DNA of 64,000 nucleotides, from positions 50,191-114,190 of the forward strand of contig JAGAPH010000152.1 of the NCBI GenBank assembly GCA_017623375.1, in the 5' to 3' direction. Origin of the DNA: Clostridia bacterium. GTDB lineage: Bacteria > Bacillota > Clostridia > Oscillospirales > CAG-272. How positions within the stretch are numbered: position 1 is the stretch's first letter; the number at the start of each line of letters is the position of its first letter. Below are positions 6,001 through 9,000 of the stretch, piece by piece. Position numbers: made by a program.

Positions 6001-9000
6001 CTACCCGTATGGGAAAGAAGCTTTATACCGAAAGACACGATGCCAGCCGCCTTACGCTCCACAGAGCGGAAACGCAGAAGAGTGAAGCTATATACATATG
6101 CGAGCGTATAAACGAGCTTGTAATGAGCGGTAAGTATAAATATCGCGACATGGCTGTGCTATACCGTCTAAATGCTATTTCAAACGCTATAGAGACTACC
6201 ATGTCCGCAAGCGGTATCCCCCACGTCACTCTTTCGGGACAGAGCTTTTACGAACGAATGGAGATCAAGGATCTGCTTGCTTACCTTTACGTTATAGTAA
6301 ATCCCTCCGACCGCGAAAGACTCAAGCGTATAATAAACGTGCCTCGCCGTCAGATAGGCGCAAAGACCGTTGAAGGTCTTTTTGCCATCGCAACTGAGCA
6401 GGGAACGACTCCAGTGAGCATAATGCGCAGCGCGGACATATATGCGGCGCTTTCACGGTCGTCGGTAAAGCTTATGGATTTTGCAAAGCTTATGGATTCT
6501 CTCAGGGCAATGCTTGAAAAGGATATAAGCCTTGAGGATTTCGTCAGACTTGTGCTTGACAGGTCGGGATACCGTCAGTCGCTTATCGACGCGGGAGAGG
6601 AGGAAAAGGAGAGGCTTAACAACCTTGATGAGTTTATATCAAATGTTATAGAATTTGAAAAGGAATATTTTGACTCCGTGAACATCTCCGAGCAGCTTGA
6701 CAATGACGGTTTCGCGCAAACTCAGTCGACATCTACGTTCGCTGTTCTGAACGCTTTTCTTGAAAGGTGCTCGTTGGTTGCGGACGTAGACAAGTACGAC
6801 GAGAATGCCGACGCGGTGGTGCTCATGACCATACATTCGGCAAAAGGACTCGAATTTCCCGTGGTGTTCCTGCCTGCCATGGAGGAGGGCGTTTTCCCGG
6901 GAACGCAGACCATAAATTCCATACTCCCCGAGGACATGGAGGAGGAGCGCCGACTGGCATACGTTGCCATTACCCGTGCCAAGGACAAGATATACCTGTC
7001 ACACACGCGAAACCGCCTGCTTTATAATCAGACGTCGTACAATCCGATCTCAAGATTTGTGACGGAGATACCCGAGGATCTTATCAGTGATGAGACCCCC
7101 GATTACGATACCTATGCTTACGTACCGAGACCGAAGGTCAAGACTTACTATTCGGCGATGGAGACCGCACCTGCCGCTTCAGTTTATACGCCAAAGCCTC
7201 AGCCAAGGTCCATGACGCAGGTGGCATTGAGCGTAGGCGACCGAGTAAGCCACAGAGTATTCGGAGAGGGCGAGATATTTACAGTAAAGCCCATGGGCGC
7301 GGACATACTTTATGAGGTGATATTTGACAACGCAGGGACGAAAAAGCTTATGGGAAGCTTTGCAAAATTGAAGAAGATACAATAAGAATTTTATGAAAGC
7401 AGAAGAATTGAAAAAGCGAAAAACTCCAAGATTGCAAAACTTCGATTATAATAGTGTTGGTGCGTATTTCATAACGATCTGTACGCAAAACAGGCGGTGT
7501 ATGCTCTCTCAAATTGTAGGGACAGGCGTCCTCGACTGTCCGCAAGTCAAATTGACGAGATATGGCGAAATCGCGGAGAAATACATTAAGCAGTTAAATG
7601 ATTTTTATGATAATATATCTGTGGATAGTTATGTTATAATGCCAAATCATATTCATATCATGCTTCTAATAAGAGAGAACGGACAGTCGAGGACGCCTGT
7701 CCCTACAAAAGCAAACAGTGTATTTTCCCGTTTTTTATCAACTTTTAAGCGATTTTGCAATAAGGAATATGGGGAAAATATTTGGCAATCACGATCTAAC
7801 GACCATATCATTCGTGATAGGAGAGATTATCAAGAACATTTGAGATATATTTATGAAAATCCCATGCGTTGGAAATTTGATGAGTTATATGTGGAAGAGA
7901 GGACGATATAGGTGGAAGTGAAGCCAACAGAAAGAGGAATATAAATGTCTAAGTTAATATTATCATCATGCGATTTTAGAAATAGTGTGTCTGCAAGGTG
8001 TATATATGGTAATTTACCGATTTCAATCAGCCAATGCAAAGTATTTATATTTTCCCAATGAAAAAGCAACAGAACAAGAAATTAAGGGAAAAAAGTTTTA
8101 TGATCGTCTTGCAGCGTTTGGTTTTTCTATAGAAAACATTTGCGTTTTTAATTATTTTTCCCCGTCGGACTATTGTCGAAATACGGATATAGACGTTATT
8201 TATGTCAGTGGCGGAAATACGTTTGGAACCTTAAAAAGAATCAGGGAATCTGGAGCAGATAAAATTATTTTGGATTACATATCAAAAGGCGTAACTTATA
8301 TAGGGGGAAGTGCAGGAGCGCATATTGCCTCGCGTTCGATTGAACATGTGTCAAAATACGATGTTGAAAAGTTTGGTATAATCGATTTTTCTGGATTGAA
8401 ACTTTTTGACGGCGTTTTGATATGTCATTATTCTGACGAGCGGAAGGAAGATTATGAAGATTTAGTGAGGCAAGGTGTAAAAAACGTTATAAAGCTTTCA
8501 GATACAGATTGTATAGTAATAGAAGTATAAAGAAAATCCCGATAGACAAAAATCTGTCGGGATTGTTTTTGTTAAAACACACTTTCAATAATTTTTGATG
8601 CGCCGTCGGGTGAATATTGCCAGCGGTCGATGTGGCATACTGCTTGACAGTCGGTATAATACCGCAGCTTTGGCGGAGGAGTCGATCCGTTGTAGCTATC
8701 TATGAGGACCAGCTTTATCTTCATTCTGTCGGGCAAGATGCTTTTTATGTAAACGGCAACGCGCTCACCAGCCTTGGCGATATCGCTATCCACCGTGCCA
8801 TCGCGTATCTCCGCAAGCCCCGCAAGATTGGGCGTAAGCTCCACAAATACTCCGTAGCTCTCAATGCTGCGCACGATCCCTGCCACTGTCTGTCCCACCT
8901 CAAATTCCGCCGCGTTCTCCAGCCACGTGCCAAGCAGCTCGCGCATACTTACAAATATCCTTCCGTTGTCTCTGTCTATGGATTTTATAACAGTATAGAT

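Follow-up and report, generated by a model that had tools for sequence, protein, structure and literature searches.

Paired REP-type hairpins within the coding sequence of a family of RAYT-like genes in Clostridia

We have analysed a stretch of 64,000 nucleotides from a Clostridia bacterium (Oscillospirales, CAG-272; GenBank assembly GCA_017623375.1, contig JAGAPH010000152.1, positions 50,191 to 114,190 of the forward strand), which is called the window here and whose first nucleotide is position 1 of all coordinates given for it. It contains a small gene for a predicted enzyme of the REP-associated tyrosine transposase (RAYT) type, in which two hairpins of the class of repetitive extragenic palindromes (REPs) lie inside the coding sequence, one on either strand. 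The same internal pair is found in most of the related Clostridial genes that we examined, where the signatures of nucleotide-level selection on it are unambiguous. We think it probable that the pair functions like the REPs that flank the gene in a classical REPtron, only internalised, i.e., that the hairpins are recognition, and possibly cleavage, sites of the enzyme on single-stranded DNA (ssDNA) and at the same time permanently linked copies of its substrate.

Results

The initial annotation of the window had noted a perfect 27-bp inverted repeat inside the gene. A repeat finder recovers it and extends it by TT/AA to 29 nt, with arms at 7514-7542 and 7680-7708 that are 100% complementary and 137 nt apart. 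The 27-mer is present at these two places only in the window, the number expected being 0.00 (100 shuffles). Both arms lie within an open reading frame (ORF) of 172 amino acids on the plus strand and are translated, as had been read before, as VGTGVLDCP and GQSRTPVPT. Folded as ssDNA on the strand that bears the GTAG, each arm forms a 6-bp stem, a G·A mismatch, an inner stem of 2 bp and a TCCT loop, with energies of -9.2 kcal/mol for arm 1 and -8.7 kcal/mol for arm 2 (z about -4). The features of the window are the following:

7393-7911, plus strand: RAYT-like HUH/Y1 ORF (TnpA-REP-like, of the subclass 2.4 type), predicted from the ORF list, profiles, the match to 4er8_A and the ratio of nonsynonymous to synonymous substitutions (dN/dS)
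7514-7542, plus strand: arm 1 (site 1), consisting of TT, GTAG and the hairpin; here it is the coding strand that carries the REP, which is translated as (I)VGTGVLDCP and occupies a beta-hairpin tip in the model
7543-7679, plus strand: segment of 137 nt between the arms; its product in the model comprises helix 56-71 and strand 75-82 as well as the HUH strand
7648-7656, plus strand: codons of the HUH motif, H86-I87-H88, from the translation; aligned to H59-M-H61 of 4ER8
7680-7708, minus strand: arm 2 (site 2), the REP of arm 1 on the non-coding strand; the coding strand reads GQSRTPVPT(K)
7846-7848, plus strand: codon of the predicted catalytic Y152 (in RYIYENP), invariant and aligned to Y115 of E. 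coli TnpA-REP
10701-10726, minus strand: degenerate extragenic copy of the REP class of the arms, from a pattern search; sequence GTAGGGACCAGCGTCCTCGACGGTCC

With regard to the encoded protein, its closest sequence match in the PDB is 4er8_A, the E. coli TnpA-REP bound to a REP (phmmer, E 5e-8), while ISDra2 TnpA reaches an E of only 0.4 and the IS200/IS605 transposases match far more weakly than 4er8. An AlphaFold2 model (mean predicted local distance difference test score, pLDDT, 71.5) submitted to Foldseek gave the same ranking, with 4er8_A first and ISDra2 and IS608 TnpA next, and the top 30 PDB matches were all TnpA-REP or IS200/IS605 TnpA (E 2e-7 to 4e-4). REP_Tyr_transpos is the sole NCBIfam match, at 66 bits under its cutoff of 80, and Pfam Y1_Tnp scores 16.7 bits under a cutoff of 23. 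In 31 homologs H86 and H88 of the PNHIH motif are invariant, and so are Y152, K119 and R134. In E. coli TnpA-REP, Y115 is the catalytic tyrosine, and K82 and R97 contact the hairpin (PMC3479197); the latter two align to the invariant K119 and R134. By sequence and by predicted fold, the ORF encodes a RAYT-like Y1/HUH protein, in agreement with the initial annotation. Since dN/dS outside the arms is 0.04-0.18 between pairs of homologs, the gene encodes a working protein.

A comparison of motifs suggests that the protein largely fits the signature (NH[IFV]H, WQ, near YIxNNP) of subclass 2.4 of the tnpA-REP genes, which is the same as RAYT group 4 of Bertels et al. It has PNHIH and IWQ, and its YIYENP deviates from the consensus YIxNNP by an E for an N. 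It ends 15 residues after the NP, as compared to 45 in E. coli RayT, and hence has no C-terminal extension.

The model places both GTAG-tagged hairpins in loops, as the initial annotation had expected. Arm 1 encodes residues 42-50, the predicted tip between strands 39-43 and 50-54, and arm 2 encodes residues 96-105 in the predicted loop between the HUH strand (86-93) and helix 110-126; the pLDDT drops below 50 at residues 99-106 of this second loop. The two arm-encoded surface loops thus bracket the HUH core in the model. When aligned to 4ER8, the residues SRTPVPTKAN fall into a gap of 10 residues, and the helix that follows the arm-2 loop is the equivalent of alpha-C of TnpA-REP, so that by this alignment site 2 would lie near the bound DNA.

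For the wider family, a scan of one genome per species (GTDB species representatives) returned at least 430 confirmed relatives, and this large clade of gut Clostridia is represented by 3,603 protein clusters. We took 80 loci from these relatives, with 40-72% identity, nearly all of them from gut or rumen Oscillospiraceae and other Clostridia, as metagenome-assembled genomes. The initial annotation had proposed to look for complementarity of the two segments in orthologues, and the pair is indeed kept: 73 of 81 genes have GTAGGG plus a hairpin at site 1 on the coding strand and the inverse at site 2. When paralogs and metagenome copies are included (~40-95% identity), both hairpins are present in 75 of 84 full-length genes, and the paired REPs are spaced 116-240 nt apart in the family. 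The hairpin sequence itself changes from lineage to lineage and falls into at least ten classes, among them GGGACAG…CTGTCCC, GGGGTCG…CGACCCC, GGGCGGGGGCTTGCTCCCGCC, GGGGCGATTCACGAATCGCCC and GGGGAGGGGTTCCCCCTCCC.

The manner in which the two arms of a gene differ from each other is informative. They are identical in 22 of the 73 genes and show at least one difference in the other 51, mostly 1-2 nt. Of these differences, 42 concern stem positions that are compensated within the same arm, 58 are in the loop and 31 outside the hairpin, and there was no uncompensated stem difference. Covariation was evaluated on arms that had at least 5 of 6 outer pairs, a filter that 124 of 146 arms passed, the rest being classes with other stem or loop lengths. 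In the 62 distinct 27-nt arms, 99% of the cells are paired, as compared to 28-52% with slid partners, and there are 95 double-sided changes as compared to 24.3 in shuffles (none of 500 reached this value). The three variable stem pairs each occur as 3-4 pair types with no one-sided change, and a G-U pair was found in only 1 of 496 cells.

At 4-fold degenerate sites, the entropy of the third position amounts to 0.36 bits within the arms, as compared to 1.69 bits outside them, for 20 genes of a single hairpin class; for 65 genes of the family the values are 0.74 and 1.80 bits. No gene departs from GTA-GGG at site 1 (65 of 65) or from CCT as the codon of P104 at site 2 (60 of 60). Between the window gene and one relative (L001), synonymous sites are saturated (proportion of synonymous differences, pS, 0.88), yet all 54 nucleotides of the arms are identical. 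Constraint at the nucleotide level thus maintains the units as DNA hairpins whose GTAG(GG) is invariant.

Furthermore, the two arms of a gene show concerted evolution, and they also co-diverge with the protein. Their distance within a gene has a median of 1 nt, while the distance of arms between genes rises from a mean of 0.25 at 90% protein identity or more to ~12 at 30-40% (Spearman -0.51). Whether the arms are homogenised or are both held to what one enzyme recognises, either would give this pattern, and the two are inseparable here.

It had also been suggested that the arms form a conserved 27-bp duplex in the mRNA. In the predicted fold of the window mRNA they are indeed paired over 29 bp (-91.8 kcal/mol, z -9.1). 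However, the 42 compensated changes within arms keep each hairpin and damage the duplex between the arms, and this part of the suggestion did not hold in the family: the conserved entity is each arm's own hairpin and not the long-range duplex. A constraint at the DNA level is favoured by the fixation of GTAG(GG) on the non-transcribed strand at site 2, and also by a covariation that is almost exclusively of the Watson-Crick type. The 29-bp duplex of the window gene would then be a by-product of its identical arms, which may nevertheless lower expression. We also considered a known RNA family and rejected it, since no Rfam family was found at threshold; the best match, McaS, is at chance level (21.6 bits as compared to a gathering score of 42, E 0.31).

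The repeat is not confined to the genes. In 1.16 Mb of sequence flanking the focal genes we found 126 GTAGGG-hairpins, as compared to 12 in a control with reversed sequence; 16 of them lie in further RAYT paralogs and 74 are intergenic-like. The arms of the local gene are matched by 20 of these hairpins with at most 1 mismatch, where 2.4 are expected (0 of 2000 permutations), and several such copies are situated 40-340 nt downstream of the RAYT gene. The earlier proposal that the motif recurs elsewhere and that the protein loops are tied to the repeat family of the genome is thereby borne out. The dispersed unit is ~28 nt long, of the form (T)T-GTAGGG…CC(G), has unconserved flanks and is present in both orientations. 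Among neighbouring extragenic pairs of the same class, 31 of 44 are in the order plus-minus with the GTAG facing outward, which is the polarity of the internal pair. The internal arms and the dispersed ~28-nt copies thus are one repeat class.

Metagenome contigs scanned for the REP class of the window gave at least 120 stretches with at least 138 copies, of which at least 92 are outside RAYT-like ORFs, at least 19 inside and at least 27 at contig ends. In these loci (L087-L206), 27 of the 138 matches listed are no more than 60 nt away from the end of a contig, which is what a repeat that disrupts short-read assembly would produce. Among the extragenic contexts, some are nearly the same on several contigs and represent orthologous sites in related strains, and the copy counts from metagenomes therefore are not independent of each other.

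Within other real genes we found no convincing in-frame REP in ~1.2 Mb of the same genomes. The candidates proved to be spurious ORFs or cases in which the REP lies upstream of the Pfam domain, and the sole hairpin located within a domain was a chance hairpin that belongs to no REP class. Likewise, the internal doublet was not encountered at any other place, the exception being a segmental duplication in Monoglobus. The possibility that extragenic doublets are deletion derivatives of an internal REP-core-REP was discarded as well, since their spacers are unlike RAYT genes and unlike each other. In two loci, four to five different classes of GTAG-hairpins were observed within a few hundred bases (L060 at 3563-4066 and 7398-7641, L046 at 8393-8553), which suggests that REPs of different classes pile up at the same spots, in the manner of bacterial interspersed mosaic elements or hot spots.

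The degenerate extragenic copy in the window (10701-10726) is intergenic, lies just past the rpsI terminator and folds weakly (-6.0 kcal/mol, z -1.4). Beside it, at 10733-10772, there is a second inverted repeat, AGGACGG … CCGTCCT, with 7 bp and a 21-nt loop, which is not of the GTAG class.

At the DNA level, the internal units are dynamic: they vary in tandem copy number, with the reading frame kept. Close homologs are 160-222 amino acids long, a variation that largely stems from additional tandem copies of the peptides encoded by the arms; 14 of 120 such homologs carry more than one unit at a site, in frame. In L002, L032 and L046 the extra units are whole GTAG-hairpins, each with a short spacer, and in L011 and L019 they are partial hairpins; this points to slippage-type duplication filtered for reading frame. 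One locus (L008, ~5160-5230) has a microsatellite of ACAATGACAAGG repeats, translated as TMTMTRTMTRTMTRT, right after the site-2 REP, and the site-2 loop evidently tolerates almost any in-frame sequence.

In Monoglobus pectinilyticus (L084, 1037-5700), a tandem duplication comprises a DNA methyltransferase gene and an N-terminally truncated RAYT; the CTAC edge of the site-2 REP is precisely where its homology stops. The number of partial hairpin units is not the same in the two copies. In another locus (L025), a small RAYT fragment has an end of this kind as well. These two boundaries are no more than suggestive. The additional doublet in Monoglobus belongs to this segmental duplication, and we therefore do not regard it as a mobilised REPIN.

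The internal pair is by far the commonest arrangement in the protein family, but there are others. Some relatives have internal plus flanking copies, or flanking copies only. A flanking arrangement with plus REPs upstream and minus REPs downstream is found in a paralog of L008 and on a Leptolinea plasmid, and two genes without internal hairpins (L028, L063) are directly followed by an inverted doublet, again with this polarity. On the Leptolinea plasmid (L082), two plus GTAGGG-hairpins lie upstream and three minus ones downstream (2580-2726, 3611-3928) of a gene at 2995-3501 that has no internal REPs. The internal pair is missing from E. coli rayT and from the Spirosoma, Fulvitalea, Leptolinea and Pseudomonas relatives, so that it is no universal feature of RAYTs. 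In a neighbour-joining tree (which has no support values) the flanked forms adjoin the distant relatives, consistent with the flanking arrangement being ancestral and the internal one derived, with a few secondary losses.

Homologs of the Bacteroidota type show a different solution, in that site 1 is uninterrupted and a single insertion (e.g., VETRHALSL) is present in the post-HUH loop. In Runella slithyformis (L209) this peptide is encoded in frame by one perfect 28-nt double-foot palindrome, GTAGAGACAAGGCATGCCTTGTCTCTAC. An identical palindrome precedes the RAYT start codon by 30 nt, the two being located at 2444-2471 (upstream) and 2807-2834 (inside the gene). VETRHALSL or close variants recur in many homologs of the Bacteroidota type.

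Discussion

The literature on RAYTs and REPs mostly describes REPs that flank the gene, overlap gene ends or are inserted in frame in unrelated genes. The initial annotation was not aware of a description of REPs inside the RAYT gene itself. This has to be corrected, since in-frame REP insertions in tnpA-REP genes of subclass 2.4 were reported by Quentin et al. (2018, BMC Genomics 19:475, PMC6006769). These genes resemble the Clostridial ones. A GTAG-tagged REP is located in the tnpA-REP ORF with the frame intact, the REPs beginning with GTAGGG, and the loop between beta3 and alpha-C is of variable length with short repeats; arm 2 sits in the equivalent loop. In contrast, the Clostridial gene has two single-foot REPs in two loops and on opposite strands, which bracket the HUH core. 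In Quentin et al. (2018), Clostridia are not mentioned for subclass 2.4, and a REP in the loop before the HUH strand is not described in the text, though paired cases are possibly drawn in Fig. S10. Hence, in-frame REPs in a RAYT subfamily were already reported in 2018, and the split inverted pair of Clostridia is a distinct variant.

In the classical REPtron of E. coli (Ton-Hoang et al. 2012, PMC3333891), as in the Clostridial gene, a Y1/HUH enzyme is physically linked to its cognate GTAG-hairpins. However, the REPs of E. coli are outside the gene, and rayT itself has neither GTAG nor CTAC, while the Clostridial REPs are within the ORF and are translated; no REP flanks 7393-7911 in the window. 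The polarity of the classical REPtron, with the plus REP upstream and the minus REP downstream, matches that of the flanked relatives on the Leptolinea plasmid and in the L008 paralog.

In our proposal, two cognate REP hairpins are placed inside the RAYT coding sequence instead of beside the gene, REP 1 on the coding strand in the predicted loop before helix alpha-B and REP 2, in the loop that follows the HUH strand, on the other one. Their GTAGs face outward (plus … minus), as do those of the REPs that flank classical REPtrons. That the gene would be a ssDNA substrate of its own product had been named as a possibility in the initial annotation, and it is plausible. The arms would be recognised, and possibly cleaved, when the gene is single-stranded, e.g., as lagging-strand template, and one arm would be available whichever way the fork moves. 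In characterised RAYTs, the GTAG is needed for both binding and cleavage (PMC8266576, PMC3479197). The arms would also be substrate copies that are permanently linked to the enzyme, because deletion of a REP would damage the gene, so that the enzyme and its REP family become inseparable. Such a linkage would explain the co-divergence of arms and protein.

Several points weigh against this proposal. The action of the protein on REPs is deduced here from sequence and model. In situ selection on the arms is inseparable from their continual re-homogenisation by gene conversion or RAYT activity. The hairpins form in the mRNA too, such that they may have a role at the RNA level, and the long-range duplex is very stable in the window gene. 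The window holds just one extragenic copy, which is degenerate, and in the matched Monoglobus record (518 kb) the REP is found at 4 intragenic places, all within RAYT copies. Furthermore, the suggested change from a flanking to an internal arrangement depends on a tree without support values. Finally, Quentin et al. (2018, PMC6006769) deem the variable insertion region between beta3 and alpha-C of subclass 2.4 peripheral and probably of little impact.

The last point leads to the alternative that the REPs are passive selfish insertions in two permissive loops, harmless, without any role and refreshed from the extragenic pool by conversion or RAYT exchange. We consider this possible, though doubtful. 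In-frame REP insertions are known in unrelated genes (PMC3733652), and Quentin et al. (2018) read the subclass 2.4 insertions as passive. Both arm loops are surface-exposed with low model confidence, site 2 tolerates microsatellites and partial hairpin duplications, and a few members of the clade lack one or both internal hairpins with the ORF intact. However, position and frame are fixed throughout the clade even though the unit can be read through in two forward and three reverse frames, and both hairpins are kept in most genes down to ~40% identity. Neutral relics would not show 99% pairing without a single uncompensated stem change. The lack of convincing in-frame REPs in other genes of the same genomes makes the RAYT ORF a specific exception. 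Moreover, the members without internal hairpins have REPs beside the gene, which suggests that the linkage itself is retained. The signatures of nucleotide-level selection argue that intragenic REPs in RAYTs are maintained features and not incidental insertions, as was previously assumed.

A further idea is that the internal pair is the master or seed copy of the REP family of the genome and a means of enzyme-substrate co-evolution, new extragenic REPs being copied from the gene. A change of the REP would then also alter the protein beside its DNA-binding surface, since one REP-encoded loop is predicted to abut the helix that in TnpA-REP enters the minor groove of the REP. If this were so, an ORF of ~520 bp would constitute a complete and indivisible REPtron, in which a switch of specificity is written once for both partners. 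We hold this to be rather unlikely.

Returning to the RNA, one could imagine that a duplex of 27-29 bp, as an RNase III target or a block to translation, or two local hairpins serve to keep the level of a potentially dangerous nuclease low. The perfect pairing of the arms in the predicted fold of the window mRNA speaks for this, as do the 22 of 73 genes with identical arms and the 1-2 nt by which most others differ, and mRNA secondary structure was reported to affect the translation of IS200 transposases (PMC3733652). Nevertheless, compensation within an arm creates mismatches in the duplex, and the arms differ in 51 of the 73 genes. At site 2 the fixed GTAG(GG) is on the non-transcribed strand, and the mRNA there reads only CCCUAC. 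A single G-U cell in 496 is unusual for RNA stems but would be expected of DNA hairpins that can serve on either strand. The extragenic unit is present in both orientations, and no Rfam family was detected at threshold. Regulation at the RNA level as the reason for the pair thus seems to us quite unlikely.

Two other explanations can be dealt with briefly. An intragenic inverton, in which the repeats flank an invertible on/off segment of 137 bp, would fit the geometry, since the inverted repeat of 29 bp is perfect, encloses a short segment and is found in a gut bacterium. However, all 80 of 80 matches of the genome scan are collinear, on one strand and over approximately the whole query, and the protein profile is matched over its full length and on a single strand by 95 gene copies, with no inverted allele seen. 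Moreover, no invertase gene adjoins the ORF, and in many genomes the two arms have become different while each retains its hairpin, so that we rejected this very improbable scenario. That the palindrome arose by chance or in a single lineage, unrelated to any repeat family, would agree with its low copy number in the window, but is next to impossible given 0.00 expected matches, conservation over hundreds of species and the existence of extragenic copies.

It is instructive to compare the Clostridial arrangement with further systems. In insertion sequences of the IS200/IS605 group, the recognised ends are on the same strand, are outside tnpA and define the mobile unit. In contrast, the Clostridial hairpins lie within the ORF, one on each strand, and relatives share no nucleotide homology beyond it. 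What the two have in common is the fold and, in IS608 and ISDra2, a hairpin with a 5′ tetranucleotide that is recognised on ssDNA (PMC8266576). REPINs (Bertels and Rainey 2011, PMC3116915, PMC3337134) are similar in that two REPs of the same class are inverted with respect to each other, but the "spacer" of the window pair consists of 137 nt of essential coding sequence, and the spacers of the extragenic doublets in Clostridial genomes are unrelated to this segment and to each other. In-frame intragenic REPs and the Rickettsia palindromic elements (Di Nocera et al. 2013, PMC3733652) resemble the Clostridial case in that palindromes are translated in functional proteins, presumably as loops. 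However, those insertions are scattered over unrelated genes at non-conserved sites, whereas the host in Clostridia is the putative enzyme of the repeat itself, and site, frame and hairpin are conserved throughout the clade.

For the questions of REP spread and of the long-term match between RAYTs and their REPs, the Clostridial genes offer a compact and experimentally tractable system, with enzyme and substrate in ~520 bp and with natural variants of the arrangement (internal, flanking, downstream doublet). Surveys of flanking extragenic sequence alone would miss RAYT-REP associations of this kind. For annotation, the internal units explain the hypervariable length of these proteins and the recurrence of peptides like VGTGVLDCP and GQSRTPVPT.

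Genomic setting and minor observations

In the window, the RAYT start codon is 8 nt past the stop codon of pcrA, and the first predicted terminator comes only after the ORF that follows, a Peptidase_S51 gene. The region before the start (7372-7395, …CAATAAGAATTTTATG) has no obvious Shine-Dalgarno motif, and there is no promoter-like site just upstream, which suggests weak read-through expression of the RAYT. There is one RAYT copy in the window, and an identical gene with the same context is found in 2 other assemblies, while several of the loci from relatives carry two RAYT paralogs. Across species there is no synteny (pcrA is upstream in 1 of 80 loci), and we therefore dropped synteny as a sign of vertical inheritance.

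When the arms are masked, the ORF is richer in AT than its flanks in 80 of 80 loci (37% as compared to 48.8% GC), and the nucleotide homology between relatives, at these divergences, ends at the ORF boundaries; conserved non-coding ends of a mobile unit were thus not found. The AT-richness and the end of homology at the ORF may reflect horizontal movement of the gene, or else selection for an AT-rich setting around GC-rich hairpins. The window itself has an island of low GC at 7390-8570 (~30%, with ~46-50% around it) that spans the RAYT ORF and the ORF at 7985-8530. The latter is the Peptidase_S51 gene, identified by Pfam on the same gene in L207, and it is not linked to RAYTs in the other 80 loci.

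Elsewhere in the window, at 3786-3813, a perfect palindrome with a 10-bp stem, GGGCGCGTAA…TTACGCGCCC, is preceded by GTAG on the minus strand and thus has the GTAGGG-plus-hairpin form of a REP. It lies within the ORF at 3751-4149, a cytidine deaminase according to Pfam. We considered it as a REP and regard the likeness as probably a coincidence: the hairpin encodes …RARKNAYAPY…, which we take to be the conserved AYAPYS motif of cytidine deaminases, with no apparent insertion.

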